Part shown: positions 7,170 through 37,604 of the stretch, piece after piece
How positions within the stretch are numbered: position 1 is the first letter of the stretch
Layout of the letters: each line of letters starts with the position of its first letter
Assembly (NCBI GenBank): GCA_034520565.1
Contig: JAXHNL010000002.1
Coordinates: 64,001 to 128,000 of the forward strand
Length of the DNA stretch: 64,000 nucleotides
From: Halodesulfurarchaeum sp.
GTDB taxonomy: Archaea; Halobacteriota; Halobacteria; Halobacteriales; Halobacteriaceae
Direction: 5' to 3'
Position numbers and translations under genes: made by a program
The notes under the pieces: generated by a model
Told to the model about the DNA's origin: nothing
What the model saw: the letters and a program-made list of their open reading frames with translations, nothing else
Databases searched by the model: none

Positions 7170-7396
7170 CGGACCCGACGGGACTCCCGCGAACGCAGTG
7201 AGCGGGAGGTCGTCGGGGGAGCGAAGTGTTCCGAAGGAACCTGAGCGGACCCGACGGGATTTGAACCAGAGGAAGACTCGCTCCCGAAGGTCGCTCGTCT
7301 TCCAGGGCTCAAATCCCTGAACGTTTTCACTGCTCCCTTCGGTCGCAGGAAAACGTCGCCGTCCGTTCGTACTCCTCGCTTCGCTCGGAGAACTCA
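7170..7396 (-). repeat. Two structured non-coding units, each ending in a copy of the tRNA-Arg 3' end
   Basis: cggacccgacgggatttgaacc at 7246-7267 and cggacccgacggga at 7170-7183 repeat tRNA nt 7397-7418 and 7397-7410; the intervening DNA forms hairpins. Confidence 0.9.
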
Positions 7397-7469
7397 CGGA
7401 CCCGACGGGATTTGAACCCGTGACATCTTGGTCCGGAACCAAGGACTCTGTCCACTGAGCTACGGGCCC
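7397..7469 (-). tRNA. tRNA-Arg(CCG)
   Basis: Reverse complement GGGCCCGTAGCTCAGTGGACAGAGTCCTTGGTTCCGGACCAAGATGTCACGGGTTCAAATCCCGTCGGGTCCG; anticodon arm CTTGG-TT-CCG-GA-CCAAG; no encoded CCA; TTAAA box about 27 nt upstream. Confidence 0.96.
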
Positions 7470-7576
7470 TCATCTTCCATTCCACCGTCGACGTGTTTAA
7501 CCGTTCTGACTCACTCCAAGCCCTGACCAGACAACCGACGTGGTCGGCAGAAAACATTGAGTTGGGCGGGAATTCC

Positions 7577-7804
7577 AAAGGGGCCGACCGGTCGCGTTCG
7601 ACTCGGCGGGCACTATCACGACTGAGCAACGCGAAGGAGTGATATCCCGGCGAGCGGGCGCGAGCGGGAGGGGGCTTTTCGGAGTCATTGTCTTCTTTGC
7701 AGGATTGCAATATGGACCACAACAAATCCCACACCCCACCAGAAACCCCACCGAAAATTCCCTGTCCAATTACCAAAACCACACGCACACTCGCGAGAAG
7801 CCCC
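7577..7804 (+). repeat. REP-like long imperfect hairpin (7577-7679) with downstream GGGGCTT/AAGCCCC inverted repeat
   Basis: TCGCGTTCG/CGGGCGCGA, CTCG/CGAG, CGGG/CCCG and TATCAC/GTGATA stems with tandem GA/GA mismatches; ggggcttttcg (7671-7681) vs cgagaagcccc (7794-7804). Confidence 0.65.
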
Positions 7805-7860
7805 AAACAGCCGTTTGACGCTACGCCGTTTATACCATCCTCACGCTCCACGTGTCCAAT

Positions 7861-8634
7861 ATGGATCGTGGAACAATCCTCGCCGTCGCGATCGCGGTCG
7901 CCGTGATCGCCGGAGCCGGCACCGCCGGCGTCGCAATGGCGTTTTCCGACCAGAACGCATCGCCCAACCAGACAACCGACATCGACAAACCAGCCCCGAA
8001 CAGCACCATCACCGTCTCGGCCACGGGCTCCGAGAGTGCCGACCCCGACAAGGCCGAACTCCGCATCGTCGTCCAGAAAACCGCCGATGACCCGAACACC
8101 GCCCGCACCGACGTCGCGAACAACGTCTCCAGCGTCACCGAGGCCCTGCTCGCCATGGGTCTCGCCGACGAGGACATCCGCACCACCGACTACCGCATCG
8201 GCGAACGCGTCGAACGACCCACCGGGCCCACCGAGGAGCGAACCGAAGAACGCGTCGCCTACGCCCGCCAGACCCTCGAAGTCGAGATAACCGACCTCGA
8301 CCAGGTCGGCTCGGCCATCGACACCGCCGTCGAAAGCGGCGCCACCGAGGTCCAGAACGTCCGCTACACGCTCACCGAACAGACCCGGAACGAACTCCGG
8401 AACGAGGCCCTCGTGGCCGCGATGGAGCAGGCCCGATCCCAGGCCGACACCCTCGCGACCCAGTCCGAGCTGACCATCACCGGCCCGAGCGAGATCACGA
8501 CCGATTCCTACCACTCGCCGATCGTCCGCTACGAGACTGCCGCCGGCGGAGTCGCAGAGAGTAGCACCGAAATCGACGCCGGCCCGGTCTCGGTCCAGAC
8601 CCAGGTCACCGTGACCTACGAAGCCGCCCCGTAA
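7861..8634 (+). CDS. SIMPL (DUF541) domain secreted protein
   Basis: Signal peptide, ITVSATG..SADPD.A, GATEVQNV.Y.L, AL..AM..AR.QA..LA, V.VTY C-terminus. Confidence 0.9.
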   Translation: MDRGTILAVAIAVAVIAGAGTAGVAMAFSDQNASPNQTTDIDKPAPNSTITVSATGSESADPDKAELRIVVQKTADDPNTARTDVANNVSSVTEALLAMGLADEDIRTTDYRIGERVERPTGPTEERTEERVAYARQTLEVEITDLDQVGSAIDTAVESGATEVQNVRYTLTEQTRNELRNEALVAAMEQARSQADTLATQSELTITGPSEITTDSYHSPIVRYETAAGGVAESSTEIDAGPVSVQTQVTVTYEAAP

Positions 8635-8716
8635 CCCCCGTCGATCGATCGAACTCTTCTCCCGGTTCCCACACCCGACCACAAAGGGTTAGCCGCCTTC
8701 CCGCGTAAATACTGTG

Positions 8717-9481
8717 ATGGTATCACTTACCGACAAGGTAGCACTCGTGACCGGCGCCAGTTCGGGAATCGGCCGCCAGACCGCCGAAACCTTCGCCGAG
8801 CGGGGCGCGAAAGTCGTCGTCGCCGACGTGGACCGCGAGGGCGGCCAGGAGACCGTCGAACAGATCGAAGACAGGGGAGGCGAAGCCATCTTCGTCGAGG
8901 CCGACGTGACCGACCCCGAGTCGACGGAAGCGATGGTCGAAACGACCGTCGAAGAATTCGGCCGGCTGGACTGTGCCTTCAACAACGCCGGGATCGGCGG
9001 GCCGCAGGCACCGGTACAGGAGACCGACCCCGAAGAGTGGCAGACGGTCATCGACGTGAACCTCGTGGGCGTGTTCAACTGCATGCGCGCCGAAATCGAG
9101 CAGATGCTGGCCCAGAACGGCGGCGGGGCCATCGTGAACAACTCCTCGATCCTCGGGAAGGTCGGCTTTGCCAGCGCATCCGGCTACGTCGCCGCAAAGC
9201 ACGGCTTGCTGGGCCTGACCAAGACCGCCGCCCTGGAGAACGGCGAGACCGGGATCAGGATCAACGCCGTCTGCCCCGGATTCATCGAGACGCCGCTGCT
9301 CGAGGCGGGCGGGATCACCAGCGACCCCGAACTCAGAGAGATGATCGAGGGACGGCACGCGATGAACCGGCTGGGCCAGCCCGAGGAGGTCGCCGACGCG
9401 GTCGCCTGGCTCTGCAGCGACGAGGCCTCCTTCGTCACCGGCGAGGCCCTCGGGGTCGAGGGCGGCTACCTCGCCCAGTAG
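8717..9481 (+). CDS. Classical SDR family oxidoreductase
   Basis: TGASSGIG, NNAGI, YVAAK catalytic motif, CPGFIET. Confidence 0.93.
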   Translation: MVSLTDKVALVTGASSGIGRQTAETFAERGAKVVVADVDREGGQETVEQIEDRGGEAIFVEADVTDPESTEAMVETTVEEFGRLDCAFNNAGIGGPQAPVQETDPEEWQTVIDVNLVGVFNCMRAEIEQMLAQNGGGAIVNNSSILGKVGFASASGYVAAKHGLLGLTKTAALENGETGIRINAVCPGFIETPLLEAGGITSDPELREMIEGRHAMNRLGQPEEVADAVAWLCSDEASFVTGEALGVEGGYLAQ

Positions 9482-9602
9482 GCCAGCCGGTCGCGAGCAA
9501 CGGGCTCTTGGCATCCCCGGACCAATCCATCTCAATGACCGAGATTCGTGGCTCCCGATCGCAGTCGAGATCACCCGGCGCGACCACCCCGAAGGTCCGC
9601 CG

Positions 9603-9962
9603 ATGACGAACTGGAAAGCGGTCGGCATCGGCTTTCTCGTGGAGATAGTAGTCGGGGTGGTCGGGTTGCTGATTCCCGGAATCGGCCAGTTGGCTGCCGG
9701 GCTGATCGGCGGCTTCGTCGCCGGCTATCTCGCCGCGGAAGGCACCTGGAGCGGTGCGTGGCACGGCCTCCTGGCCGGGGCCATCGGCGGGATCGTCCTC
9801 TCGCTCCTGCTCGCCCTGCTCGTGACGATCGTCGGCTCGCTCGGCTTCGGAATCCTGGGGCCGCTGGCTGGTGGCAGCGTGTTCCTCCTCGCGGTCACCG
9901 TCGCGCTCTTTTTGGCCATCGACAGCGCGATCGGCGGCGCAATCGGCGGCTTTCTGGCCTGA
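9603..9962 (+). CDS. DUF5518 family small membrane protein
   Basis: W.AV.IGF, GG..AGY, GAWHG..AG..G pattern; hydrophobic and Gly-rich. Confidence 0.8.
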   Translation: MTNWKAVGIGFLVEIVVGVVGLLIPGIGQLAAGLIGGFVAGYLAAEGTWSGAWHGLLAGAIGGIVLSLLLALLVTIVGSLGFGILGPLAGGSVFLLAVTVALFLAIDSAIGGAIGGFLA

Positions 9963-9997
9963 ATCCGTCCCGCGACCCTTCTCGAACAGTCCCAGAA

Positions 9998-10720
9998 TCA
10001 GTATTCGGTTCCTTTGCGGCCCCGCGTCCCCGCCTCGAAGGGGTGGGCCTCGAGGCTGACGTGACTGATCAGGTCGGCGTGGCCCTCGAGGTAGTCCGGT
10101 GACTCGTGGCCGCCGGTCAACACCAGTTCGAGGCCGTCCGGTTTCGACTCGATCAGATCGACCGCCGCCGCCGGATCGACCAACCCCCGATTGGCGGCGT
10201 AGAGGATCTCGTCGAGAATCAGCATGTGGACGCCGTCCTCCGGCGGACCGTCGAGATCCAGCGGGCCGGTGAGATCCGCCTTCCCAGCCGCGTCGAGCAA
10301 TTCCCGGGCCCGCTCCAGGCCCGCCTGTGCCTTCGCCGCGTGTTCGTCCTCGTCCGGGCCCACTCCCTGGTGGTGCCAGCCGTAGTGGCCCAGATTCTCG
10401 TAGGTGTACCCCGGCAACGCCGCGATCGCATTGTACTCCCCGCGGGTGTCCTCGACGGTCTGGGTCCCGCCCTTCATGAACTGCAGGAGGTGGACCCGGT
10501 AGCCGTGGCCGACGGCCCGCATGCCCATCCCCATCGCGGCCGTGGTCTTGCCCTTGCCGTCGCCCCACCAGACCTGCACCAGCCCGAAATCCGCAGGGGC
10601 ACTCGCCTCGATCGGCTGGTCGGTCAGGGCCGGTTCGCCGCCGTCGGCCCGGATTTCAGCCTGGACGATCTCGCCGGCGGGGCCGGGCGGTTGGACATCC
10701 TCGCTCCCTGGTCGTGGCAT
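9998..10720 (-). CDS. cobO: cob(I)yrinic acid a,c-diamide adenosyltransferase (CobO/BtuR)
   Basis: VWWGDGKGKTTAAMG, QFMKGG, ILDEI, ELVLTGG, HPF..G...RKGTEY. Confidence 0.92.
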   Translation of the reverse strand: MPRPGSEDVQPPGPAGEIVQAEIRADGGEPALTDQPIEASAPADFGLVQVWWGDGKGKTTAAMGMGMRAVGHGYRVHLLQFMKGGTQTVEDTRGEYNAIAALPGYTYENLGHYGWHHQGVGPDEDEHAAKAQAGLERARELLDAAGKADLTGPLDLDGPPEDGVHMLILDEILYAANRGLVDPAAAVDLIESKPDGLELVLTGGHESPDYLEGHADLISHVSLEAHPFEAGTRGRKGTEY

Positions 10721-10780
10721 TGACACACGGAAGGAGTGACGCCACTTTGGGCGTTCCGGTCGGCGCGGTTCTGGCCCCGG

Positions 10781-11674
10781 TTACTGCCGTTTGACTTCGT
10801 GACGACCGAACCCGTACCGGAGCCGATTCGCGAGCTGCCGGGAGAGCCGCGGACCCGCCCGGGAGGAAAAGCGCTCCGCGAGGGCCTGGTAGATGAGCGG
10901 CAGGGGCACCTCCTGTTCGAGACTCTCCTGGACCGTCCAGGTGCCGGTCGAACCGCCGGCGACGTAATCGGCGACGTCACCGAGATCCGAGCCCTCCTCG
11001 CGGAAGGACTCCTCGGCGAGTTCCAGGAGCCACGACCGGACGACCGCGCCGTTCGTCCAGGTCCGGGCGATGGCCTCCAGATCGAAGTCATAGCGACCCT
11101 CCGCGAGCAGCTCGAAGCCCTCGCCGTAGGCCTGCATGAGCGCGTACTCGATGCCGTTGTGGACCATCTTCACGTAGTGGCCCGCCCCGGATGGACCCAT
11201 GCGCTCGTGGCCCTCGCGACCGGTCGCGACCGCGTCGAAGACCGGTTCGAGTGAGTCGTAGGCCTCCTGCGGACCGCCGACCATGAGCGAGAAGCCGACT
11301 TCGGCCCCCGCCGGGCCGCCGCTCGTCCCACAGTCCAGATACTGTGCGTCGATCCGCTCGGCCCGCCGGATCGAGTCGTGGAAATTGGAGTTGCCCCCGT
11401 CCACGACGACGTCCGCCTCGTCGAGCAGCGGGTCGAGTTCGTCGAGTGTGGCGTCGACCGGATCCCCGGCCGGAACCATCAGCCAGATGTGCCGGGGCGA
11501 GTCGAGCACCTTCGGGATCGCCTGGACCGATTCGACGACCTCCGCGCCCGCGTTCGCGGCGTCTGCCCTGGCCCCCTCGTCGATGTCGAAGGCGACGACG
11601 TCGTGCCCGTCCGCGAGTACCCGATCCACCACGATTTGTCCCATCCGTCCGAGTCCGATGACGCCCAGTTCCAT
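10781..11674 (-). CDS. gnd: 6-phosphogluconate dehydrogenase (decarboxylating, short form)
   Basis: GLGRMG, WLMVPAG, DGGNS, DCGTSGG, KMVHNGIEY, RYGFGRH. Confidence 0.95.
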   Translation of the reverse strand: MELGVIGLGRMGQIVVDRVLADGHDVVAFDIDEGARADAANAGAEVVESVQAIPKVLDSPRHIWLMVPAGDPVDATLDELDPLLDEADVVVDGGNSNFHDSIRRAERIDAQYLDCGTSGGPAGAEVGFSLMVGGPQEAYDSLEPVFDAVATGREGHERMGPSGAGHYVKMVHNGIEYALMQAYGEGFELLAEGRYDFDLEAIARTWTNGAVVRSWLLELAEESFREEGSDLGDVADYVAGGSTGTWTVQESLEQEVPLPLIYQALAERFSSRAGPRLSRQLANRLRYGFGRHEVKRQ

Positions 11675-11748
11675 GTCACATCTCTCTCACGGAGCGACCG
11701 TTATGGTTGCGATTCGACCATTCGACTCCCCGCGGTGTTTCGGAGCCC

Positions 11749-12606
11749 TCACTCGGCCTGGAGATCGGAACGGTGATCCTCGAAGAATTCGCGGACGGTT
11801 CGTGGTTCCCGACCGAGGATGTGCTGGACCGTGTCGGTCGTCCGCGACGCCCACCCCAAACGCGTGACCGAATATTCGGCGATCATGAACGCGATCAGCG
11901 TGGGTGCAACCCCCCGGGCGTACATCCGGCGGGCGAATCGAACTCCGGAGGGGTCGGCATACCGAATCTCCCGCTCGAGGACGTCACTCGCCACGCGTGC
12001 CACCTCGAAAAAGGAAACCGGCTCCGGGCCCGTGAGCGTGTAGGCCCGGTTCCGGTGTTCCGGTTCCACGAGGGCCGTCGCCGCGACCTGCCCGACGTCC
12101 CGAGCGTCGATGATGCCCATGGCGCCGTCCCCGGCGGGGACGAAGATCTCGTCGCGGTCGACGATTTCGGGTCGATGAATCTCGAGGAGGTTCTGAGCGA
12201 AGTAGGCCGCACGGAGATGCGTGAAATGGACGGATGTGGCAGCAAGGTGCCGTTCGATCCGCCGATGTGGCAGCACCGGAACCGCCTCGGCACCCAGGAC
12301 CGAAAGAAACACGACGTGTTCGACGCCGACGCGTGCGGTCGCGTCAACGAATTCACGAATCGGATCCACGCCCGTACCAGGGGGCAGCAGCAAGAAGACT
12401 GCATCCACACCGCCGAGGCTAGAGCCCCAGGTTTCCGGCCTGGAAAAGGAGAACTCGACGGCCTCCACGTCGGCGGCGAACTCCTCCCCCGCCTCCTCGG
12501 GGCGTCGAGACGCGATCCTGACGGTCGCGGTCTCGGCTTCGAGGGCGTGAACCACCGTGGATCCGACGGTTCCAGTCGCGCCGGTCACGAGGACTCGTCC
12601 GGTCAT
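11749..12606 (-). CDS. NmrA-like/atypical SDR NAD(P)-binding protein
   Basis: VLVTGATGTVGS, FLSVLGA...PH..IE, F.QN, IDARDVG, YTLTGPE. Confidence 0.88.
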   Translation of the reverse strand: MTGRVLVTGATGTVGSTVVHALEAETATVRIASRRPEEAGEEFAADVEAVEFSFSRPETWGSSLGGVDAVFLLLPPGTGVDPIREFVDATARVGVEHVVFLSVLGAEAVPVLPHRRIERHLAATSVHFTHLRAAYFAQNLLEIHRPEIVDRDEIFVPAGDGAMGIIDARDVGQVAATALVEPEHRNRAYTLTGPEPVSFFEVARVASDVLEREIRYADPSGVRFARRMYARGVAPTLIAFMIAEYSVTRLGWASRTTDTVQHILGREPRTVREFFEDHRSDLQAE

Positions 12607-12691
12607 TGATCGAACGACGTGGGGAAATGCCCTAAGCCCGACGGATTTCACGCCAGGGTCTCTCCCGGTTCCGACCGAAGCCCGGTGGATC

Positions 12692-13522
12692 TCACTCCAG
12701 GGCCCGACGTGGTTCGATCCGTGGCACGTCCCCGTTACTCACCTTCGCTTCCACGTCGAAAACCTCAGCGAGCAACGCCTCGTCGACCACCGCCGAGGGT
12801 GGCCCCCAGTCGTACACCTGCCCGTCCTGAAGGGCGACCACGTAGTCGGCGAAGCGAGCGGCCTGCTGGAGGTCGTGCAGGACGACACACACGGTCACCT
12901 CACGGTCCCGGTTGAGCTGTCGAACGACCTCGAGAACCCGGATCTGGTGGTGGAGATCGAGGTACGTCGTCGGCTCGTCGAGGAGGAGGACCTCGGTCTC
13001 CTGGGCCAGGACCATCGCGACGAACGCGAGTTGCTTCTGGCCCCCGCTCAACTCGGCGACCGGTTCCTCGCGGAGATGCTCGACGCCGGCGAGCTCGATG
13101 GCCCGGTCGATGGCCCGCCGGTCGGCCGCCTCGAGAGTCGAGAGGAAGCGCCGATGGGGATAGCGGCCGTGGGTGACAAGCGATTCGACGGTCAGATCCC
13201 CCGGGGCGGTGTTCTCCTGATCGAGCAGTCCCAGCTCCCTGGCGAGCGCCTTCGGCGAGCGTTCCTGCACGGCGCGTCCATGCAGCAGGACGCTCCCCGC
13301 CTCGGGTTCGAGTTCGGCGGAGAACCCACGCAGGAGCGTCGACTTCCCGGAGCCGTTCGGTCCGACAAGCGCGGTGACCTCGCCGCGGGGAACGACCAGG
13401 CGGTCCAGGTCGACGACGATCTCCTCGCCGTACCCGAGTTGCAGGTCCGAGACCCGGATCGCCGGCTTCTCGATCGATTCGGTTCCGAGCGCCGCCGTCC
13501 GTGTAGGTTGGTGTCGTGACAT
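12692..13522 (-). CDS. Iron(III)-chelate ABC transporter ATP-binding subunit (FecE/FhuC-like)
   Basis: GPNGSGKST, LSGGQKQ, LLLDEPTTYLD, VLHDL. Confidence 0.93.
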   Translation of the reverse strand: MSRHQPTRTAALGTESIEKPAIRVSDLQLGYGEEIVVDLDRLVVPRGEVTALVGPNGSGKSTLLRGFSAELEPEAGSVLLHGRAVQERSPKALARELGLLDQENTAPGDLTVESLVTHGRYPHRRFLSTLEAADRRAIDRAIELAGVEHLREEPVAELSGGQKQLAFVAMVLAQETEVLLLDEPTTYLDLHHQIRVLEVVRQLNRDREVTVCVVLHDLQQAARFADYVVALQDGQVYDWGPPSAVVDEALLAEVFDVEAKVSNGDVPRIEPRRALE

Positions 13523-13524
13523 GA

Positions 13525-14640
13525 TCAGAACTCCGAGAGCGAGTCGGTCCGGCGGAGCAGGTAGAGGAAGTAGGGCCCGCCGATGAGGCCGGTGACGACC
13601 CCGACGGGCACCTGGGTCCCGGGGATCCCGAGCCGGGCCACCGCGTCCGCCGTGACCACGAGGGCGGGGCCGGCAAAGAGACAGCCCGAGATCAGGCGCC
13701 GGTAATCGCTGCCGACGAAGGTCCGCACGACGTGTGGGACGACCAGGCCGACGAAGCCCACGAGTCCCGCGACGGCTACCGACACCGCCGCGGCGACGAT
13801 GGCGAGCGCGGAGAGGACGAATCGCGCCCGTTCGACGGACATGCCCAGCGACCGGGCCGTCCGCTCCCCGAGCAGGAGCACGTCGAGGTGGCGGGCCGAG
13901 AGGAGCGCGAGCGGCGCGATGAGCAGTGACGGGACGACGACGATTCGACCGGCCCCCCATCCCACCCCGACGAGCGAGCCGGCGAGCCACGAGACGGCAG
14001 TGCGCATCGCCCCGTTGCTGTCGATGAAGTAGAAAAGCCCCGTCTGGAGGCTGTTGAAGATCGTGGCGACGACGATGCCGGCGAGGATCAGGCGGACGGG
14101 CGTGGTCCCGCCTCGCCAGGCGACGAGGTAGACGAGCAGGAACGCACCGGAGCCCCCGATCACCGCCGCGATCGGAAGGAGGGCGGCCCCGAGCGAAAAG
14201 ACGATCGTGAACACCACGGCGACCCCCGCGCCGGCGGAGACGCCCAGCACGTACGGACTGGCGAGTTCGTTGCGGGTAATCGCCTGGAAGATGGCCCCCG
14301 AAATGGCGAGGTTGAGCCCGACGAACGCCCCCACGACCACCCGGGGCATCCGGATCGTCCAGACGACGATCGTGGCGTTCGAGAGGTCGGCGAGATCGGC
14401 AGCGAGTCCCACCCGACCGGCGAGTGAGTCCCCGAGGACGATCGTCGCGAGCACGCGGGATCGTGTCCAGACGGCCTCATCGAAGAGGGCCCGCACGGTC
14501 GTCTCGAAGCTCATCTCGAAGGCGCCGTATCGCAACTGGACCAGTCCCGCCCCGACCACGAGGAGGACACTCGCGACGGCGATCCCGAGAACGGTGCCGT
14601 CGAAATCCGGGGTGACGGCGGTTCGGACGCGGTGGGACAT
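13525..14640 (-). CDS. FecCD-family iron ABC transporter permease
   Basis: IRMPR, SGAIFQAITRNELASP..LGVSAGA, GFVGLVVPH, PVGVVTGLIGGPYF. Confidence 0.93.
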   Translation of the reverse strand: MSHRVRTAVTPDFDGTVLGIAVASVLLVVGAGLVQLRYGAFEMSFETTVRALFDEAVWTRSRVLATIVLGDSLAGRVGLAADLADLSNATIVVWTIRMPRVVVGAFVGLNLAISGAIFQAITRNELASPYVLGVSAGAGVAVVFTIVFSLGAALLPIAAVIGGSGAFLLVYLVAWRGGTTPVRLILAGIVVATIFNSLQTGLFYFIDSNGAMRTAVSWLAGSLVGVGWGAGRIVVVPSLLIAPLALLSARHLDVLLLGERTARSLGMSVERARFVLSALAIVAAAVSVAVAGLVGFVGLVVPHVVRTFVGSDYRRLISGCLFAGPALVVTADAVARLGIPGTQVPVGVVTGLIGGPYFLYLLRRTDSLSEF

Positions 14641-14677
14641 GAGGTGGGTGGAGCGGTTCAGTTGGGGTGCCGATCGA

Positions 14678-15805: not shown

Positions 15806-15811
15806 GGCTAG

Positions 15812-28861: not shown

Positions 28862-28867
28862 TCCCGC

Positions 28868-29815: not shown

Positions 29816-31096
29816 ATGCGCGTCATTCGGAACGCGACCCTCCCCGACGGCCGCGAGCGGGACGTCGCGATCGACGACGGGACCATCGCGGCGGTCGGCG
29901 CGGAACTGGCCGGCGAGACGCTTGCCGACGCGAGCGGCAAGTGGCTCTTCCCGGGCATGATCGACGTCCACGTTCACTTCCGGCAGCCGGGGTTCCCCGA
30001 AAAAGAGACCTGGACGACCGGGAGTCGGGCCGCGGCGGCCGGCGGCGTGACGACCGTCGTCGACCAGCCGAACACCGATCCTCCGACCGTCGACGGCGCG
30101 AGTTTCGACCGGAAAGCCGAGTTCGCCGCGGATTCGCTCGTCGACTGGGGGCTCAACGGTGGGGTTACCCCGGACTGGCAGCCCACGGAACTGTTCGACC
30201 GCCCGCTTTTCGCCCTGGGTGAGGTCTTTCTCGCGGACTCGACTGGCGACATGGGAATCGAGGGGTCGCTCTTCAAGACGGCCCTCGAACGGGCGACCGA
30301 CGCGGGCGTCGTGACGACGGTCCACGCCGAGAACGCCGGTTACTTCGACGAAGGCGTGACCGGCCGGGAGGATCCGGCCGCCTGGAGCGATTTTCGGCCA
30401 CCGCAAGCGGAGGTCGTCGCCATCGCGCAAGCCGTCGAGGCCGCGACCGAACGCGACGCCCAACTCCACGTCGCTCACGCGAGCACCCCCGAGGGGATCG
30501 ATCAGGCCGCTGCGGCGGGTGCCACCACCGAAGTCACCCCGCATCACCTCTTCCTCTCGACGGACGACTGCGAGGACCTGGGCACCTTCGGACGAATGAA
30601 CCCGCCGCTCCGGGACGAAACCCGGCGACTCGCGGTGTACGACCGCGTCGCCGACGGGACCGTCGACGTGATCGCGACCGATCACGCGCCCCATACCCGC
30701 GAGCAGAAGGACACTGACATCTGGTCGGCCCCGAGCGGCGTCCCGGGGGTCGAGACCGCCCTCCCCCTGCTGCTCGCCGAGGTAAAAGCGGGGCGACTCG
30801 AAGCCGAACGCGTGCGGGATCTCACGGCCCGCAATCCAGCACGGATATTCGGCCTCCCGAGAAAGGGGCGGATCGAGGCGGGAACGGACGCCGACCTCGT
30901 GCTGGTCGACCCGACAGCCGAGCGGGAGATCCGGGGCGGGGACCTCCACGGCAAGACCGACTGGACCCCCTTTGCGGGCATGACTGGCGTGTTTCCCGAG
31001 ATGACGATGGTCCGGGGGTCGATCGTCTGGGAGAGCGCAGATCCGACGGAGGCGGAGGGGTCATTCGGCGACCCAGTCGGTCAGAACGTCCGTTGA
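29816..31096 (+). CDS. pyrC: Dihydroorotase
   Basis: PG.IDVHVHFRQPG, AAAGGVTTVVDQPNT.P, HAE, EVTPHHL, MNPPLR, TDHAPH. Confidence 0.93.
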   Translation: MRVIRNATLPDGRERDVAIDDGTIAAVGAELAGETLADASGKWLFPGMIDVHVHFRQPGFPEKETWTTGSRAAAAGGVTTVVDQPNTDPPTVDGASFDRKAEFAADSLVDWGLNGGVTPDWQPTELFDRPLFALGEVFLADSTGDMGIEGSLFKTALERATDAGVVTTVHAENAGYFDEGVTGREDPAAWSDFRPPQAEVVAIAQAVEAATERDAQLHVAHASTPEGIDQAAAAGATTEVTPHHLFLSTDDCEDLGTFGRMNPPLRDETRRLAVYDRVADGTVDVIATDHAPHTREQKDTDIWSAPSGVPGVETALPLLLAEVKAGRLEAERVRDLTARNPARIFGLPRKGRIEAGTDADLVLVDPTAEREIRGGDLHGKTDWTPFAGMTGVFPEMTMVRGSIVWESADPTEAEGSFGDPVGQNVR

Positions 31097-31123
31097 ACCG
31101 CTGCCGATTGGTGGAACCGTGCC

Positions 31124-31759
31124 CTATTCCTCGCCGCCGAAGGTGTGCCCGCAATCCGGACAGGTCTGTTCGTCGCGTCTGAGATCCTCGCTCGCCTCCC
31201 GGACCTCCCGCATCACCGAGGAGATCCGTTCTTCGCCCTCGAGTTCCTCCTCGACGGCGAGGTCGACCCCCTCGACCTCGAGGAGGAACTTGGCGACCTC
31301 CGTCGCCTCGTACATCACTTCGTCGAGTTCGTCGGCGGTGAAAAAACCGCTCATCGCGCCGTAGAGAAAGGTCGCGCCGGCCATCCTGACCTTGTTCTCG
31401 AACGCCGAGCGGGCCTGATTGACCGCTTGCGGGGAATACGTGTCGGTCATGAAGGGGACCAGTTCCGGCAGGTTCTCGCCGATCTTGGTCATCTCGACCC
31501 CGGTCTCGGTTCGGAAATCGGCACACAGGCGGGCGATGGCCCATTCCCGGGCCGTGATGTACGTTCGATCGCGGAGGAACTCGTTGACCCGGTCGTAGGT
31601 CGCCCCGTCGACCTTCTTGAACCGCTCGTACTTCCGGACGTCCTCGGGAACCCGTTCGGTGATTTCGCGGGGCGAAACCGAGAGGAGGTCACGAACCGCT
31701 TCGGGGCCGGCGCTGACCCGGCGATCGGGTGGCTTCACGGCCGCCGGATCCCTGTCCAT
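31124..31759 (-). CDS. DUF5806 family protein with C-terminal CPxCG zinc ribbon
   Basis: KYERFKK.DGA.Y.RVNEFLRDRTYITAREWAIARLC; CPDCG at the C-terminus; start uncertain. Confidence 0.85.
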   Translation of the reverse strand: MDRDPAAVKPPDRRVSAGPEAVRDLLSVSPREITERVPEDVRKYERFKKVDGATYDRVNEFLRDRTYITAREWAIARLCADFRTETGVEMTKIGENLPELVPFMTDTYSPQAVNQARSAFENKVRMAGATFLYGAMSGFFTADELDEVMYEATEVAKFLLEVEGVDLAVEEELEGEERISSVMREVREASEDLRRDEQTCPDCGHTFGGEE

Positions 31760-31863
31760 ACCGCTTGTTTCAAGCGGGTCCGCAAAAGCGTGACGGGCTT
31801 TGCCCGGGTCCGGGTGGGTTCGAGAGCAGTAATCCTTTTGCGCGGGCCGAACGAGGGTGAGCC

Positions 31864-32232
31864 ATGAAAGTGCTGTTCGGGTTGCAGGCCGGTTCTACCT
31901 CCCTCGAGACGCTCGAACGGACGGTCGAGCGGGTCCAGTCGGTTGGGGACGAGCTCACGGTTGCCGTACTCGAGCATCCAGACGGGGAGGGGTCCGTGAC
32001 CGAGACAGCGGCGGCCGTCGAGGACGTCGTCGAAGGGGCCCTCCCGGCGGCCGAGATCAGGCAGGTCGAGGGGCATCCGGGAAGCCGCCTGGTCGAGATC
32101 GCCGAGTCGGAGGACTTCGATCGCATCGTCCTGGGCGGCGGCGAGCAGAGCCCGATGGGCAAGATCCGTATCGGCTCCGTCGCCGAGTTCGTCCTGCTCA
32201 ACTCCCACGTCAGTGTCACCTTGCTCAGATGA
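31864..32232 (+). CDS. Universal stress protein
   Basis: G.PGSRLV.IAE.E.FD.IVLGGG..SPMGKI.IGS.AEFVLLN. Confidence 0.9.
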   Translation: MKVLFGLQAGSTSLETLERTVERVQSVGDELTVAVLEHPDGEGSVTETAAAVEDVVEGALPAAEIRQVEGHPGSRLVEIAESEDFDRIVLGGGEQSPMGKIRIGSVAEFVLLNSHVSVTLLR

Positions 32233-32762
32233 CAGACCGACGGTATCCAGAGGAAGCGGCCGGGCCGTTCCCGACCCCACCGATCCGGTGGACCGACGAC
32301 TCGGGCCGCCCCGTCGAAATCGACGTCTACGAGGACGACCGGGAGGGCCTCGTCGAGATGTACGGCGACTTCGATCCGGCCGAGCGAGCCCAGGGAATCC
32401 CACCAGTGGGAGAGGGAGCGATCCGCGAGTGGCTCGATCACCTCCTCTGCCAGAACTGCGATAACGTCGTCGCGAAACACGACGATGACCTGATCGGCCA
32501 CGCGACCCTGGTCGGTGACGACGAGGGCGCCTACGAACTGGCGATCTTCGTCCATCAGGATTACCAGGATGCCGGCATCGGCACGAAGCTCCTCGAGGCC
32601 TTGCTGGGTCACGCAGCCGAGAAGGGCATCGAACGGGTCTGGCTGACCGTCGAACGGTGGAACAAGCCGGCCACGTATCTCTACCGGAAAGTCGGGTTCG
32701 AGGGGACCGGAGCCGAGGACTTCGAGCGGGAGATGAGTATCCGGCTGGCCGACAGGACGTAA
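32229..32762 (+). CDS. GNAT family N-acetyltransferase
   Basis: ELAIFVHQDYQ.AGIGT, N.PA..LY.KVGF. Confidence 0.92.
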   Translation: MTDRRYPEEAAGPFPTPPIRWTDDSGRPVEIDVYEDDREGLVEMYGDFDPAERAQGIPPVGEGAIREWLDHLLCQNCDNVVAKHDDDLIGHATLVGDDEGAYELAIFVHQDYQDAGIGTKLLEALLGHAAEKGIERVWLTVERWNKPATYLYRKVGFEGTGAEDFEREMSIRLADRT

Positions 32763-32806
32763 TCGGGGATCGGGTGTTTCTTCCCCGCCGGTACCGACTC
32801 ACCAGT

Positions 32807-33889
32807 ATGCAAGACTGGGTCATCGACGACGACAATCTCTCGCCAGAGCGGAAGTCCCTGCTGCCGGGGACGGGGTTTTTCGTGCCACAAGACATCCGCG
32901 AGGAGCGAAAAGACGAGGAGATCGAGGCGCGGGTCAGCGGGGCGGAGGTACTGGCGGTCGTCGACCCCGACGCCGACGGTCTGGGCTGTGTCGCGATCCT
33001 CAGAGACGTGCTCGGAGACGTGGAGTTCATCCCGGCGAGTCCGCACGAACTCGCCGACGGCATCGAGCGGGCCGCGGAGTTCGGCGCGGAGGGCGGTGCG
33101 GTCTACATCTGTGATCTCGCCCCGGACGACCCCGAGACGATCGCCGAACCGCTCGACGCTCTCCTCGACCACGCGGGGGCTGTCACGTGGTACGACCACC
33201 ACCAGTGGACCGGGGAGGCCGAAACCGCGGTTAGGGAGGCAGGCGTCGAACTCGTCGTCGGGGACTCGGACGCCGAATGCACGGCGGACGTCGCTGCCCG
33301 GTCCATCGACGGGGAGGTTTCCCCCCATCTCGCCGAACTGGCAGCCGTCACCCGGGATCACGACCTCTGGATCAAGGACGACGACCGCTCGGATGATCTG
33401 GCGGACCTCTCACACTGGAAAGATCCCGAGGAGTACCTGGCGGTCGTCGAGGAACACGGCGTGGACTTCCCCGAGGACGTCCAGGACTTCCTCGCGGAGA
33501 AGCGCGTTGAGAAGGAAGACCGAATCGAGCGGGCGGTTTCCCGGGCGGAGATGTACGAAATCCGGGACTGGACCGTCGGCGTGACCTACGGCCGGTGTTC
33601 CCAAAACGAGGTCGCCGAAACACTTCGGGAGCACGGAGCCGATGCGGCCGTCATCGTCAAGCCCTCCGGAAGCGCTTCGATCAGGGGGAGCGAGGGCTTC
33701 GAACGGGCTCACGAGGTCGCCCGCCAGGTCGGCGGTGGCGGCCATCCCCGGGCGGCCGGCTGTAAGCCCCGGATCTACGAGGACATGCTGGATTATGCCC
33801 ACCACTGGACGACCCGCGGCGCACCGGCAAAACAGCTTCTCATGAAGGCCTTCTGGAATCTGTCCGAGGAGCCGGCCGAGGACGAATAG
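32807..33889 (+). CDS. DHH family phosphoesterase
   Basis: DPDADG, DL, YDHH, C-terminal GGGGHPRAAG (DHHA1). Confidence 0.92.
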   Translation: MQDWVIDDDNLSPERKSLLPGTGFFVPQDIREERKDEEIEARVSGAEVLAVVDPDADGLGCVAILRDVLGDVEFIPASPHELADGIERAAEFGAEGGAVYICDLAPDDPETIAEPLDALLDHAGAVTWYDHHQWTGEAETAVREAGVELVVGDSDAECTADVAARSIDGEVSPHLAELAAVTRDHDLWIKDDDRSDDLADLSHWKDPEEYLAVVEEHGVDFPEDVQDFLAEKRVEKEDRIERAVSRAEMYEIRDWTVGVTYGRCSQNEVAETLREHGADAAVIVKPSGSASIRGSEGFERAHEVARQVGGGGHPRAAGCKPRIYEDMLDYAHHWTTRGAPAKQLLMKAFWNLSEEPAEDE

Positions 33890-33913
33890 CGACCCGTTCG
33901 TTTTCGATCCGGC

Positions 33914-34372
33914 CTACAATTCTCGCTCGCCGGCGACCCACTTATCGGCGTACATCTCGCCACAGGCACACCGCGCGTAGGCGTGAATGACGTCGCCTTC
34001 CGCGTAGAGGCCGCCGACCTCCTCGTTTTGCTCCTCGGCGAAGGCAAAGACGATTTGGACGTCGTGGCCATCGGCCCCGGACTCGTCACGCTCCTCGCCC
34101 CTGGGACAGTCCCCTGCCGTGAGAGCTGTAGCGATCGTGCCCGCTTTTCCCATGGCCTCGCCGGCGAAGTCCATCGGATCGATCCCCGAGGCCGATTCGA
34201 ACGCCGCTCGACCCGCGTCCGCCGGCACGACGATTCTGACGCCGTCCCCGGCGGCCTCCGCGTACGCCTGTTCGGCAAGCGTGGCGGCGTCAGAGAGCGT
34301 CTCTCTGGAGAAATACGCCGCGACGTGTTGTGGGTGTTCCCCGGCGAGAAACGAGTCGATGGAGGTATTCAT
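33914..34372 (-). CDS. DUF5807 family protein
   Basis: FLAGE, FAFAEEQNEEVGGLYAEGDVIHAYA.C.CG..Y.DKW. Confidence 0.88.
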   Translation of the reverse strand: MNTSIDSFLAGEHPQHVAAYFSRETLSDAATLAEQAYAEAAGDGVRIVVPADAGRAAFESASGIDPMDFAGEAMGKAGTIATALTAGDCPRGEERDESGADGHDVQIVFAFAEEQNEEVGGLYAEGDVIHAYARCACGEMYADKWVAGEREL

Positions 34373-34455
34373 ATTGGCGCTTCGACGAGAACCGGGTTAA
34401 GCCCGGCGGAGATGCGCGATGAGGGCCCCAATTGAAACAAAAACCCCCCGTCGGC

Positions 34456-35202
34456 TTACTCCTCGGTCTCGTCGTCTTCGTCGTCCGTTTCTGCTTCGTC
34501 GGCAACCTCGTCGTCCGTTTCTGCTTCGTCGGCAGCCTCTTCGTCGCCTTCTGCTTCCTCGTCCTCTTCTGCTTCCTCGTCCGTTTCTGCTTCGTCGGTA
34601 ACCTCTTCGTCCTCTTCTGCTTCCTCGTCCGTTTCTTCTTCGTCGGTAACCTCTTCGTCCTCTTCTGCTTCCTCGTCCGTTTCTGCTTCGTCGGCAACCT
34701 CGTCGTCCGTTTCTTCTTCGTCGGCACCCTCTTCATCGTCTTCTTCCTTCTCCTCGTCTGCACCGTCATCCGTCTCGGCTTCCTCCGCAGTTTCGTCTTC
34801 GTCCTCCTCGACTTCCTCCGGTTCCTCCTCGCCGAGAGCGACGGGGACCGAGCCCTCGCCCTCGGTCACTTTGACGTTCAGTTGGGTGATCGGTTCGCCG
34901 ACTTCGCGACCACGAACGGTAATGCGTCGGCGTTCGCCGTCCCGGTTGGGCTTGTAGCCGACCCCGTCGGTCAGCAGTACTTCGGAGAGGTCCGCACCAG
35001 AGACGTCCGGCCGCATCGGACGGCCGGCGTCGTCGGATCCGCCGGTGATTTCGACGGTAAAACCGTCCAATCCGACCGCCGTCCCGTCGACGGCCTCGCC
35101 GATCTCTCGGCCCAGAAAGCGGTTTGCGTCCTGCCCGTCGACTTCTCGCGTAAACGATCGCCCCGTCTCCGGATCGGAGACGACGACGCTGAACGTAGCC
35201 AT
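34456..35202 (-). CDS. rps6e: 30S ribosomal protein S6e with long acidic C-terminal tail
   Basis: VVSDPETG, GQDANRFLG, ITGGSD.AGRPMR.DV, GERRRITVRG, QLNV; then about 115 aa of D/E-rich tail. Confidence 0.95.
   Translation of the reverse strand: MATFSVVVSDPETGRSFTREVDGQDANRFLGREIGEAVDGTAVGLDGFTVEITGGSDDAGRPMRPDVSGADLSEVLLTDGVGYKPNRDGERRRITVRGREVGEPITQLNVKVTEGEGSVPVALGEEEPEEVEEDEDETAEEAETDDGADEEKEEDDEEGADEEETDDEVADEAETDEEAEEDEEVTDEEETDEEAEEDEEVTDEAETDEEAEEDEEAEGDEEAADEAETDDEVADEAETDDEDDETEE
34470..34730 (-). repeat. Coding tandem repeats (48-bp and 30-bp units) in the rps6e tail
   Basis: Peptide units TDEEAEEDEEVTDE(A/E)E and TDDEVADEAE repeated; recurring DNA gtccgtttctgcttcgtcgg. Confidence 0.85.
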
Positions 35203-35249
35203 GGTAGAGCGAACTGTTCCGGGCGTCAAAAGGGCATCGAACCCGACTC

Positions 35250-35789
35250 TCACTCCGTTTCGTCCGCGAACGCCGCCTGGATCTTCTTCACCTTCGGTTC
35301 GACGTACAGGGTGCAGTACCGATCGTCTGGGTTGTTCGCGTAGTAGTCCTGGTGGGCCTCTTCGGCCTCCCAGAAGGTCTCGAGCGGTTCGACCTCGGTG
35401 ACGATCCCGCCCTCGAAGGCTTCCTCGTCCTCGAGGGCAGCCAGAAACGCCTGCGCGGTCTCCAGTTGCTCGTCGTCGTGGGCGAAAATCGCCGAGCGGT
35501 ACTGGGTCCCCACGTCGGGACCCTGTCGGTTCAATTGCGTGGGATCGTGGACCCGAAAGAAAACCCCAAGAAGGTCGACGTATGTGATCTCCTCTGGGTC
35601 GTACTCGAGTTGCACGCACTCGGCATGGCCCGTCTCGCCGGTCGAAACGGCCTCGTAGCTCGGGTCGGAAACGTCCCCGCCCGCGTATCCCGACGTCGCC
35701 GAAAGCACTCCGGGAACCTCCTCGAAGGCGGCCTCGAGACACCAGAAACAGCCGCCCGCGAGTGTCGCCAGGACCGGTTCGGTTGCCAT
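35250..35789 (-). CDS. msrA: Peptide-methionine (S)-S-oxide reductase
   Basis: GGCFWC, SGYAGG, TGHAE, HDPT..NRQG.D.GTQYRS, AEE.HQDYY. Confidence 0.96.
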   Translation of the reverse strand: MATEPVLATLAGGCFWCLEAAFEEVPGVLSATSGYAGGDVSDPSYEAVSTGETGHAECVQLEYDPEEITYVDLLGVFFRVHDPTQLNRQGPDVGTQYRSAIFAHDDEQLETAQAFLAALEDEEAFEGGIVTEVEPLETFWEAEEAHQDYYANNPDDRYCTLYVEPKVKKIQAAFADETE

Positions 35790-35900
35790 ACGAATAGAAG
35801 GCCGGAGAGACCCAAAAGCACACCGGCAGCGGAAATCGGGTGCGAGTTGGCTGGCGGCGAATCGACGGGTGGAAACCGACGGGCCAGCTACCCGGACCCG

Positions 35901-37184
35901 ATGGAGATCCGGTTTCTCGGCGGCGCCCGCGAGGTCGGCCGGAGTGCCCTCCTCGTCAACGAGCGGCTGCTGCTCGACTTCGGTATCAAAGCCGGCGAGC
36001 CGCTCCAGTTCCCGATCGATCGGCCGTCGGTCGACGCGGTGGTGGCCAGCCACGGCCACCTCGACCACGTCGGCAACGTCCCCACGCTCTGTACCGGCGA
36101 AGACTGGCCGACGATCCACTGGACGCCACCGACCGGCGAGTTGGCCCGCACCCTCGCTCGGGACACGCTCAAACTGCACGGCGTTCCGGAAACGGGAGCG
36201 AAATCCGGCCGGTTTCAGCCCCGCGAACTCGGCGGCAATTACAACTGTCCGTTCACCGAGATCCACGTGAAACGAGTGACCCAGCAGTCCCGGATCCACG
36301 GGTACCGGGAGCCGTTCACCGCGGCGGGCCACGAAGTCACCTTCTTCTCAGCGGGTCACATCCCCGGAAGCGCGCACGTCCTCGTCGACGACGGCGAGAC
36401 ACGACTGCTCTACACCGGCGATTTCCACACCGCCGACCAGCGACTCGTGGCCGGAACGACCGCCCGCCCGGATGCGGACGTCGTCATCACCGAGAGCACC
36501 TACGCGAACGTCACCCACGAGCCACGGCACGAGGTCGAATCGCGATTCGTCCGACAGGTCGAACGGACCCTCTGGGAGGGTGGCACAGTGGTCATTCCGG
36601 CCTTTGCCATCGGGCGGACCCAGGAGTTGCTGCTCGTCTGTGACGCCCACGACATCCCGTGTTACGTCGATGGTATGGGCAAGGGCGTGACCGAAATGCT
36701 CCGGCAGTATCCGGCGTTCGTCCGGGACCCGAAGGCACTCAAACGGGCGAGCTCACACGCTCGCTTCGTCACGGGTCGGGACGGGCAGCGAAAACGGATC
36801 GCGGACCAGAGCACGGCCATCGTCACGACGAGTGGCATGCTCTCCGGCGGTCCGGCAATGACGTATATCCCGGAGATCCGGTCGGACCCGAAGAACCTGA
36901 TCGCCCTCACAGGATATCAGGTCGAAGGGACTCCCGGTCGGGAATTGCTCGAGACCGGAAACGCCGAGATCGACAACCGGCGGATGCGAGTCGCCGCTCG
37001 CGTCGAGCAGTTCGATTTCTCGGCCCACGCGGATCGGGCGGGATTGCGGTCGTTCCTGGATTCCTATCGGGACACACAGATCCTCGTGAATCACGGCGAT
37101 CGATGTGTGGAATTTACGGCGGCGTTGACGGAAGACGGGTACGAGGCAAGCGCGCCGAAAAACGGGACGACGGTGTCCGTGTGA
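35901..37184 (+). CDS. MBL-fold beta-CASP ribonuclease (aCPSF2-like)
   Basis: FLGGAREVGRS, HGHLDH, AGHIPGS, YTGD, ESTY, P.FAIGRTQE, FSAHAD, NHGD. Confidence 0.92.
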   Translation: MEIRFLGGAREVGRSALLVNERLLLDFGIKAGEPLQFPIDRPSVDAVVASHGHLDHVGNVPTLCTGEDWPTIHWTPPTGELARTLARDTLKLHGVPETGAKSGRFQPRELGGNYNCPFTEIHVKRVTQQSRIHGYREPFTAAGHEVTFFSAGHIPGSAHVLVDDGETRLLYTGDFHTADQRLVAGTTARPDADVVITESTYANVTHEPRHEVESRFVRQVERTLWEGGTVVIPAFAIGRTQELLLVCDAHDIPCYVDGMGKGVTEMLRQYPAFVRDPKALKRASSHARFVTGRDGQRKRIADQSTAIVTTSGMLSGGPAMTYIPEIRSDPKNLIALTGYQVEGTPGRELLETGNAEIDNRRMRVAARVEQFDFSAHADRAGLRSFLDSYRDTQILVNHGDRCVEFTAALTEDGYEASAPKNGTTVSV

Positions 37185-37238
37185 CGGGCCGCTTCGGAGG
37201 GAAAGGGTTTAACCGGACAGTCACGACCGTGTAGGTGT

Positions 37239-37312
37239 GGGCCGGTAGCTCAGGTAGGCAGAGCGTCTGGCTTTTAACCAGACGGACGGGGGTTCAAATC
37301 CCTCCCGGCCCG
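37239..37312 (+). tRNA. tRNA-Lys(UUU)
   Basis: GGGCCGG...CCGGCCCG acceptor stem, TCTGG-CT-TTT-AA-CCAGA anticodon arm, GGTTCAAATCC T arm; TTTAA box at about 37208. Confidence 0.96.
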
Positions 37313-37604
37313 CTTCTGTCAAACCAAGAGCGTGTCCCGTCAGGGACCGCTCGACCAGTGACGAACGGGACAGGAGGGATTTGAACGAGAGAAACGCGAG
37401 CACGAGCGAGCGTTTCGCGTAGTTCACAATCCCTCCCGGCCCGTGAGTCCCCGAGCGAAGCGAGGGTGACGAACCGGGGCGGTCGGTGTCCTGCGAACGA
37501 AGTGAGCAGTGACGCCGACGGGATTTGAACCCGGGGAGGGGCGCGCGCAGCGAACAACCGTGAGCGAGCACGTCTCCACTCGCTTCAACATCCCTCCCGG
37601 CCCG
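37313..37604 (+). repeat. Two structured non-coding units, each ending in a copy of the tRNA-Lys 3' end
   Basis: atccctcccggcccg at 37298-37312 (tRNA), 37429-37443 and 37590-37604; each unit has an inverted T-arm copy GGGATTTGAAC. Confidence 0.9.

Follow-up and report, generated by a model that had tools for sequence, protein, structure and literature searches.

What are the hairpin-rich repeats that stand behind two different tRNA genes in this stretch of DNA, and by what process do they accumulate there? The window, 64,000 nucleotides (nt) of Halodesulfurarchaeum sp. (assembly GCA_034520565.1, contig JAXHNL010000002.1, positions 64,001 to 128,000, forward strand), carries the genes for tRNA-Arg(CCG) and tRNA-Lys(UUU), each with an array of short units behind it, and every unit closes on a repeat of the 3' end of its gene. 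A sequence-only reading had taken these units for a multi-copy, non-coding family that inserts at tRNA 3' ends and regenerates them, is recognised as folded single-stranded DNA and is mobilised in trans. The family is borne out by copies throughout the genome, and it spans the whole order Halobacteriales, which had gone unnoticed in that reading. The explanation that we favour, at slightly less than even confidence, is that the units are non-autonomous cassettes that recombine at the T loop of the tRNA gene, probably as folded single strands.

The gene for tRNA-Arg(CCG) lies at 7397-7469 on the minus strand (called by ARAGORN; Rfam RF00005, 63.9 bits), and its last 22 nt, from G52 to the discriminator, recur at 7246-7267. 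The repeat closes Arg unit 1, a class-1 unit of 151 nt (7246-7396, minus) that reads from 7396 down to 7246. The unit opens with hairpin C (7361-7396, minus), present in folds with DNA and with RNA parameters and with covarying pairs in its helix 1. This hairpin contains a GA-bracketed GCGAAGC mini-hairpin, and its 6-nt foot, ACGGAC, pairs with the tRNA end. The acceptor-strand complement ACGGAC stands directly after hairpin C, and nested between it and the T-arm complement is hairpin B (7321-7356, minus), with a GA bracket and a GAA loop; hairpin B is likewise recovered in the folds, and four pairs of its helix 2 are changed on both sides. The inverted T-loop arm, GGGATTTGA (7309-7317, minus), is the reverse complement of the T loop and of the 3' side of the T stem, and in the alignment of homologous units it belongs to a helix 3 that is 98.8% paired. 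Hairpin H (7268-7308, minus), the tip of the T-loop palindrome, is of a module type that recurs behind Ser-TGA and Arg-TCG. The regenerated tRNA 3' end, or sense arm (7246-7267, minus), is identical to the tRNA at 22/22 nt. Arg unit 2 (7170-7245, minus; 76 nt) is of class 2, which the sequence-only reading had missed: it lacks the T-loop palindrome, and its last part is a hairpin with a 13-nt repeat of the T stem 3' side and the acceptor 3' strand after it.

On the plus strand, the gene for tRNA-Lys(UUU) occupies 37239-37312 (ARAGORN; Rfam RF00005, 68.9 bits), its 3' end being placed at 37313 by ARAGORN and at 37312 by Rfam. Lys unit 1 (37313-37443, 131 nt) has a leading hairpin of a different type, then an inverted arm (37366-37386), a hairpin H (37387-37421) and a sense arm (37422-37443). 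Lys unit 2 (37444-37604, 161 nt), defined by the folds and by the alignment of homologous units, repeats the layout of Arg unit 1, with hairpins C (37444-37479) and B (37482-37519), an inverted T-loop arm (37520-37530), a hairpin H (37531-37581) and a sense arm (37582-37604). The unit coordinates and hairpin strings of the sequence-only reading were exact on re-checking, and its three hairpins C, B and A reappear in minimum free energy (MFE) folds of Arg unit 1 and Lys unit 2 with both parameter sets. In these folds hairpin A is closed by GGGATTTGA pairing with the regenerated T loop, and the base of hairpin C is formed together with the final bases of the tRNA. No Rfam family besides tRNA matches either locus, all other matches lying far below gathering scores.

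The same anatomy holds for class-1 units in general. Each consists, in order, of a leading segment (X), an inverted arm (ANTI), a hairpin (H) and a sense arm (SENSE), and is non-coding. X comprises one or more GA-bracketed hairpins and commonly has a T-rich start, like a native trailer. ANTI is an imperfect reverse complement of the tRNA 3' end in which the T-loop portion is present in every case; H is the hairpin between ANTI and SENSE; SENSE copies about 22 nt, from G52 to the discriminator. Because ANTI inverts and SENSE copies the tRNA 3' end, ANTI-H-SENSE is a palindrome that has the tRNA end as its right arm, and the array as a whole is a chain of T-loop sequences of alternating orientation with hairpin-forming segments between them. 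Nearly all hairpins share one design: an outer stem, a GA/GA bracket, a short inner stem and a loop that is often GNA. Class-1 units measure 97-176 nt and are bounded by direct repeats of the 3' end of their own tRNA; the longest runs contain three units in this genome and five in the congeneric genome G001. Class-2 units have no T-loop palindrome and are defined by a hairpin and, after it, a 13-nt repeat that takes in the 3' side of the T stem and the acceptor strand. Homologues of class 2 occur in relatives behind Arg-CCG, Arg-CCT and Ala-GGC, together with a similar Arg-GCG unit that has a 12-nt repeat; in the Ala-GGC unit and the G001 Arg-GCG unit, the two that were inspected for this, the GA motif lies on the opposite strand. 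No CCA follows the sense arms in the units inspected (by eye, uncounted); the units are therefore not copies of a mature tRNA, and an origin by retro-copying was rejected. Runs of T after the tRNA and after the units, compared as a check for terminators, show no clear difference.

The genome containing the window (hereafter G000; 1.86 Mb in 2 contigs, 80.7% complete) holds many more such loci. For 17 of the 44 tRNA genes called by ARAGORN, four of which are judged false since they lie inside open reading frames (ORFs), the last 13 nt of the tRNA recur with at most one mismatch 97-469 nt downstream, and real T-loop palindromes are found in G000 exclusively behind tRNA genes. A strict pattern, in which an inverted T loop is followed after 20-50 nt by a T loop, was scanned against 401 genomes of the phylum. 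It matches 61 of the 66 genomes of the same order, with up to 34 matches per genome, and 10 of the 334 genomes outside it, with 1-2 matches each; among these ten, the matches listed for eight resemble sequence within tRNA genes. A reversed-pattern control gave no match in the scan. Four genomes were parsed with a strict palindrome definition, which undercounts (both Lys units of the window are missed, an inserted base being present in their T loop): at least one class-1 palindrome stands behind 13/41 tRNAs in G000, 21/42 in G001, 19/44 in G010 and 20/47 in G252. The first three genomes are congeneric; G252 belongs to another family of the order, is 99% complete and has 35 palindromes. Some tRNAs never carry units, namely the three Thr genes, Gln-CTG, Ser-GCT, Leu-CAG and Ala with the anticodon TGC.

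Is the fold of the units maintained, or is it a by-product of composition? Relative to dinucleotide shuffles, 44 units have a mean folding z-score of -3.9 with DNA parameters and -4.9 with RNA parameters. Covariation was assessed on an alignment of seven homologous C-B-A units (Arg-CCG of three species and a second copy of it, Arg-TCT twice, and Lys-UUU). Standard pairs fill 92.9% of the cells of this alignment, as opposed to 37-47% when the partners are slid by 1-3 columns. In this test, which comprises seven related sequences only and a structure derived from one of them, 12 of the 55 pairs change on both sides, and the observed values were reached in 0 of 500 shuffles; the compensatory stem changes seen by the sequence-only reading are thus supported. 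One covarying pair, UA to CG, links the tRNA end to the foot of hairpin C.

The arms are also fitted to the tRNA behind which they stand. T-loop position 57, which can be A or G, is identical in tRNA, ANTI and SENSE in 91 of 97 palindromes. Beyond the loop, ANTI pairs better with its own than with foreign tRNAs at position 63 (0.63 vs 0.37) and position 64 (0.50 vs 0.28), and the observed mean pairing with the own tRNA was reached in 0 of 5000 permutations. In circular folds, the 12-nt end of the resident tRNA gives a more stable structure than foreign ends do in 38 of 44 units (mean difference -3.2 kcal/mol). Ungapped ANTI pairing beyond position 65 shows no tRNA-specific signal. This corrects the earlier picture of the inverted arm: without gaps it is tRNA-specific for the T loop and positions 62-64 only, and pairing further into the acceptor strand requires gaps or nested hairpins. 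Sense arms are nearly perfect copies, inverted arms imperfect ones.

The hairpin design is strongly strand-specific. In 15,641 nt of arrays, the GA-bracketed GNA motif occurs 76 times on the tRNA-sense strand and 3 times on the other (two genomes taken by themselves give 34 vs 2). Of 44 units, 35 have a better fold in the sense than in the antisense strand when DNA parameters are used, and 39 when RNA parameters are used. The sense strand contains 181 GNA triloops with a closing stem of at least 2 bp, which is 2.6-fold the 69.2 +/- 8.7 of shuffled sequence; the antisense strand contains 62. GNRA loops (39 in the units vs 37.2 expected) and TNCG, or UNCG, loops (18 vs 16.9) are not enriched. 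Single-stranded DNA is unusually stable where it forms GNA hairpins of the GCGAAGC type and tandem sheared G-A pairs, and on the complementary strand the GA and GNA positions are pyrimidine mismatches. Because of these mismatches only one strand can fold. Strand bias and GNA enrichment favour a single-stranded DNA form; a transcript has the sequence of the sense strand, however, and an RNA form therefore remains compatible with the strand results. The proposal that the units are recognised as folded single-stranded DNA thus gains indirect support from motif bias, triloop enrichment and sense-strand folding, all of them compatible with an RNA as well. In the whole of G000, the 11-nt GA-bracketed GNA motif is found 96 times on both strands, where about 17 occurrences are expected from base composition; by rough ORF calling 61 of the 96 sites are intergenic, and many lie away from tRNA genes.

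How stable are the arrays? Among nine other genomes with readable downstream DNA, the number of units behind the tRNA-Lys(UUU) orthologue ranges over 0-3 and their module content differs, and the number of units per isoacceptor differs for most tRNAs among the three congeneric genomes. Copy number and content at orthologous loci thus vary between species, in line with the sequence-only reading. Arg-CCG unit 1 is common to three species. Within arrays, the sense arm proximal to the gene is more similar to the tRNA than the distal one in 20 arrays, equally similar in 12 and less so in 3; this polarity agrees with insertion close to the gene, the displaced copies decaying, and also with distance-dependent conversion. 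One assembly, G007, has the same Arg-CCG units of class 1 and class 2 at two sites (L182, L184) in reversed order, one copy behind an intact tRNA and the other behind the apparent right end of an island. Parts of the Lys locus are present in 17 rows of public runs, all of them Logan contigs; these contigs break at the array and yield neither a usable gain/loss variant nor RNA evidence.

The modules themselves are shuffled. The same H and X module types stand behind many tRNAs in many combinations: units 1 and 2 of Ser-TGA have the same X and ANTI with a different H, as have the units behind Leu-GAG and Leu-TAG. The sole sequence common to all junctions is the T loop, in one or the other orientation. 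SENSE arms are almost always of the resident type. Ten of 117 palindromes were flagged as foreign, of which eight are the array of the next tRNA gene, one is degenerate and one is clean. The clean case is at tRNA-Leu(TAA) of G001, where the array reads ANTI(TAA)-H1-SENSE(Leu-TAG type)-X2-ANTI(TAG type)-H2-SENSE(TAA), and a cassette of the Leu-TAG array contains the homologues of X2 and H2. This is exactly the junction predicted for a T-loop-bounded cassette inserted into the resident T loop. It does not fit a fixed duplication, and simple transposition with target-site duplication was rejected for this reason.

Taken as T-loop cassettes, the units would behave as follows. Non-coding cassettes would pile up head to tail at the 3' ends of tRNA genes in Halobacteriales, and would be gained, duplicated and exchanged by recombination within or beside the invariant T-loop segment, as the module boundaries and the Leu-TAA junction suggest. 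The T arm of the tRNA would take the role that attI has for integron cassettes. The reactive form would be the tRNA-sense strand folded on itself: the inverted arm would pair with the copy of the 3' end, and a single strand of DNA would thereby imitate the double-stranded end of the tRNA gene, an arrangement that may be likened to integron attC sites and to the folded attP of CTX phage. A recombinase would presumably act on it in trans. The tRNA would stay intact because each insertion brings or leaves a full 3' end.

Several observations weigh against this interpretation. Ungapped complementarity of the inverted arm stops at about position 64, and the mimic of the tRNA gene end is for that reason partial in most units. 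The strand-asymmetry results fit RNA folding too, and the asymmetry is larger with RNA parameters. Some units, Arg-CCG unit 1 for example, are vertically inherited across three species, which means that movement is infrequent. Neither an excised form nor a circle nor an empty site came to light, the public-run contigs breaking at the array. Direct evidence for a crossover in the T loop is a single junction, because only one of the 117 palindromes has a foreign 3' end, and gene conversion of a Leu-TAG block is a possible alternative source of that junction. Some X modules are tRNA-specific and conserved between species, like a native trailer; since X has this resemblance, part of the unit may be duplicated flank and not mobile DNA. 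Finally, no recombinase for the units emerged from the candidates considered.

What, then, might move the units? The absence of an integrase domain from the window, as claimed in the sequence-only reading, is confirmed by a PF00589 search: the domain matches at four places in G000, none in the window and none adjoining a class-1 array (no IntI-specific signature was searched). One phage-integrase domain (27.4 bits), in a 433-aa frame at C2:58014-58577 on the minus strand, lies about 5.4 kb before the window start; relative to the Arg-CCG array, it is on the same strand and about 12.6 kb downstream. No tRNA core copy was found beside it. Tyrosine recombinase domains are too common for a test of co-occurrence. 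A mobiliser of the HUH/REP type is not supported: only 24 of 61 genomes of the order carry the Y1 HUH transposase (PF01797), and both G000 and G252 lack it. As a mobiliser it was rejected, being missing from the 99%-complete G252 with its 35 palindromes. Archaeal integrase cleavage sites may border tRNA loops, including the T loop, according to the accessible part of PMC8371274, and that part contains nothing resembling the units.

Integrases lead to the alternative that survives best, which we nonetheless consider rather unlikely: the units would be remnants or miniatures of integrase elements, att-flanked and mobilisable in cis, reshuffled by homologous recombination, unequal crossover and gene conversion in polyploid haloarchaea, and their hairpins would be incidental or merely DNA-stabilising. 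Islands do use the same tRNA 3' ends. Outside the window, two tandem islands, 8.9 kb and 4.5 kb long, stand behind the intron-bearing tRNA-Arg(TCT) of G000 (C2:516872-516976; gene and islands together, C2:516872-530620). Each ends in an integrase-like ORF, a spacer of about 60 nt and a 13-nt core, and a class-1 unit stands after each core; the sense arm of the second of these units is degenerate. Similar islands with a 13-nt core lie behind Pro-CGG (20 kb) and Arg-TCG (8 kb) in G000. SENSE arms evidently double as secondary landing sites for integrase islands. The Arg-TCT islands match the arrangement of SNJ2-type integrases, for which the available portion of PMC5861418 describes a 14-bp core at the tRNA 3' end and an int gene shortly upstream. 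On this description, a core of the SNJ2 type explains the class-2 unit at 7170-7245, which speaks for a remnant origin, and does not explain the class-1 units, because these have a longer repeat, an inverted arm and no gene. Two duplications resemble the reshuffling that a remnant origin calls for: in G001 the Ser-TGA array contains block duplications (unit 2 equals unit 4, unit 3 equals unit 5) like those of unequal crossover, and the Val-GAC and Val-CAC units with their flanks are near-identical, as after conversion between paralogous loci.

Other features are hard to reconcile with such remnants. The class-1 repeat is about 22 nt long and starts at G52, not 13-14 nt long. A double-stranded attP needs no inverted copy of the tRNA end, yet this copy is kept complementary and tailored, and the stems covary; nor are the 76 vs 3 strand bias and the GNA enrichment expected of incidental sequence. 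No island-closing 13-nt copy (700-80000 nt downstream, in G000) is preceded by a T-loop palindrome of its own, the palindromes near such copies belonging to separate units. Furthermore, two palindrome patterns of the haloarchaeal type have zero matches and one match in 2.9 million viral contigs, and the single match is a host tRNA-Glu locus. A generic T-loop palindrome pattern matches at least 120 stretches of the viral contigs (IMG/VR); judging from the 80 matches listed, these are mostly of one near-identical high-GC type, and they were set aside as unrelated to the haloarchaeal units. One of them, L070, was annotated and is a bacterial temperate phage with portal, tape measure, amidase and integrase genes. 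At L070:12464-12514, 77 nt from the integrase gene, it has a perfect 51-nt palindrome whose arms each hold a tRNA T loop and T stem, one side running into a tRNA-like 3' end; this would be a bacterial instance of a T-arm palindrome, at a likely attP. The other matches listed in L060-L139 are mostly near-identical palindromes of 40-61 nt (chiefly 51 or 58 nt) in high-GC contigs.

Could the units instead act as RNA? They would then be structured 3' trailers co-transcribed with the tRNA, like t-elements or mascRNA, whose hairpins mimic the helix of acceptor and T stem as processing signals, decoys or stabilisers. The position of the units directly downstream of tRNA genes, in sense orientation, agrees with this; read-through is possible because many leading segments start with only a short T run, pairs of the G-U type are tolerated in the stems, and both the folding z-scores and the difference between sense and antisense are stronger with RNA parameters. 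A tRNA-like element of Haloferax is, according to the accessible text of PMC4946936, processed by RNase P and tRNase Z. We nevertheless judge an RNA role improbable. The content and number of units turn over at orthologous loci between congeneric species, so that no locus-specific RNA is conserved; the enriched loops are GNA triloops and not GNRA or UNCG tetraloops; in a precursor, the foot of hairpin C would sequester the acceptor 3' strand of the tRNA, which would be a harm and not a benefit; and no Rfam family matches.

By-products of replication template switching at tRNA genes, arising from fork stalling and T-loop microhomology with no dedicated enzyme and no function, would account for module boundaries that coincide with the sole shared 11-nt sequence, for the alternating orientation of segments and for arms that copy the resident tRNA, position 57 included, but they are very improbable, as the order-wide conserved architecture, the compensatory changes, the 76 vs 3 strand bias of one hairpin motif and the disparity of near-perfect sense and imperfect inverted arms are left unexplained.

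How do T-loop cassettes compare with systems already described? The closest likeness is to bacterial integron cassettes and their attC sites. Both form tandem arrays at one fixed entry site; in both, a unit is marked by an imperfect palindrome (at the cassette end in integrons) that varies in sequence and keeps its fold and a short inverted core; and both fold strand-selectively and shuffle modular cassettes. The units have the imperfect palindrome that folds in single strands and, as its conserved inverted core, the T loop. The resemblance is one of design and not of homology. The units are archaeal, their entry site is the T arm of a tRNA and their inverted core is the tRNA T loop; they are 97-176 nt long without an ORF, whereas integron cassettes usually carry a promoterless one; no integrase stands beside the arrays, in contrast to the IntI, attI and promoter of an integron; and each unit must carry the tRNA 3' end. 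A second likeness is to the integrative mobile element exploiting Xer (IMEX) of CTX phage, in which two inverted segments of one strand pair and imitate the double-stranded chromosomal target, with tandem arrays as the result and a target that stays functional. Such a folded imitation of the target is found in the units by MFE and circular folds. However, the target is the T arm of a tRNA instead of dif, and there is no phage or satellite genome.

Elements of the SNJ2 type likewise integrate at tRNA 3' ends, duplicate them, are widespread in haloarchaea and can occupy one tRNA in tandem (from the part of PMC5861418 available). They differ, in the same part of the source, by a 14-bp core without stem-loop, an int gene adjoining the core and a length of kilobases; the class-1 units, by comparison, have a repeat of about 22 nt that includes the T loop, an inverted arm and hairpin, and no gene. 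On these features class-1 units fall outside the SNJ2 type, the Arg-TCT islands fall within it, and the unit at 7170-7245 shares its core type. Repetitive extragenic palindromes (REP) and bacterial interspersed mosaic elements (BIME) with their REP-associated tyrosine transposases (RAYT), and the palindrome-associated transposable elements (PATEs) of IS200/IS605, are also short, extragenic, transposase-free palindromes recognised as folded single strands, but they depend on Y1 HUH enzymes, duplicate no target and have no link to tRNA ends. Repeats of the REP and PATE type are abundant in some haloarchaea, and in the accessible part of the source on Haloquadratum (PMC3119063) none of the MITEs (miniature transposable elements with inverted repeats), PATEs and small mobile repeats of Haloquadratum is linked to tRNA ends. 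A MITE has terminal inverted repeats related to a transposon, with a short target duplication around them, whereas a unit has its inverted T-loop repeats internally, flanking H only; the sequences on either side of the palindrome are inverted and not direct repeats, and what is repeated directly is the tRNA end.

The t-elements of Haloferax and the mascRNA mimics resemble the units as tRNA-like parts outside tRNA genes that tRNA enzymes may process; they are, however, single RNA processing signals, whereas the units form arrays and have an inverted arm fitted to the respective tRNA. Three further readings were considered and dropped on their usual definitions: a casposon, as terminal inverted repeats are missing from the unit ends, and a kink-turn bound by L7Ae or a box C/D motif, as there is no 3-nt bulge beside the GA pairs. 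A full-text literature search found no description of the units, which does not prove that none exists; a 2012 study of Haloferax reportedly lists further tRNA-like elements and may have touched such sequences.

Two kinds of neighbouring sequence should be kept apart from the units. Other short repeats cluster behind tRNA genes, in G000 at C2:467512-467600 and C2:1329590-1329690 and in G001 at L017, L018, L044 and L047; among them are an element of about 70 nt (T-run, hairpin, A-run) and GA-bracketed hairpins GAGGTC..GACCTC, neither of which is class 1. In the window, the tRNA-Ser(GGA) called by ARAGORN at 8076-8162 (minus) has no Rfam tRNA match and no T loop and lies inside a 451-aa ORF (7327-8682, minus); it is probably a false call.

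The family looks like an undescribed small mobile DNA. In the widest form of the idea, which is conceivable but doubtful, Halobacteriales would possess an integron-like principle in which the T arm is the entry site and gene-free cassettes of about 100-175 nt act as folded rods of single-stranded DNA. Cassettes would be captured, excised and shuffled, the GA-bracketed GNA hairpins would make one strand foldable, and a recombinase of the host or of a mobile element would read the structure together with the universal T-loop sequence. Recombination of folded single strands is, to our knowledge, a principle so far known only from bacteria.

If true, the cassettes would be the commonest chromosomal mobile DNA of haloarchaea by copy number (up to 35 strict copies in a genome of 2-4 Mb), unnoticed so far, and haloarchaea would share that so far bacterial principle of folded-single-strand recombination. 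The universal T loop would be a new target of site-specific recombination and a possible genetic tool for archaea. Arrays of this kind would account for contig breaks and possible annotation errors behind haloarchaeal tRNA genes, the 3' flanks of tRNA genes would serve as fast-evolving markers between close species, and the preference of mobile DNA for tRNA genes would become testable. Even under the most ordinary of the rival explanations, the conserved order-wide architecture, together with its hairpin code of the DNA type, is descriptively new.

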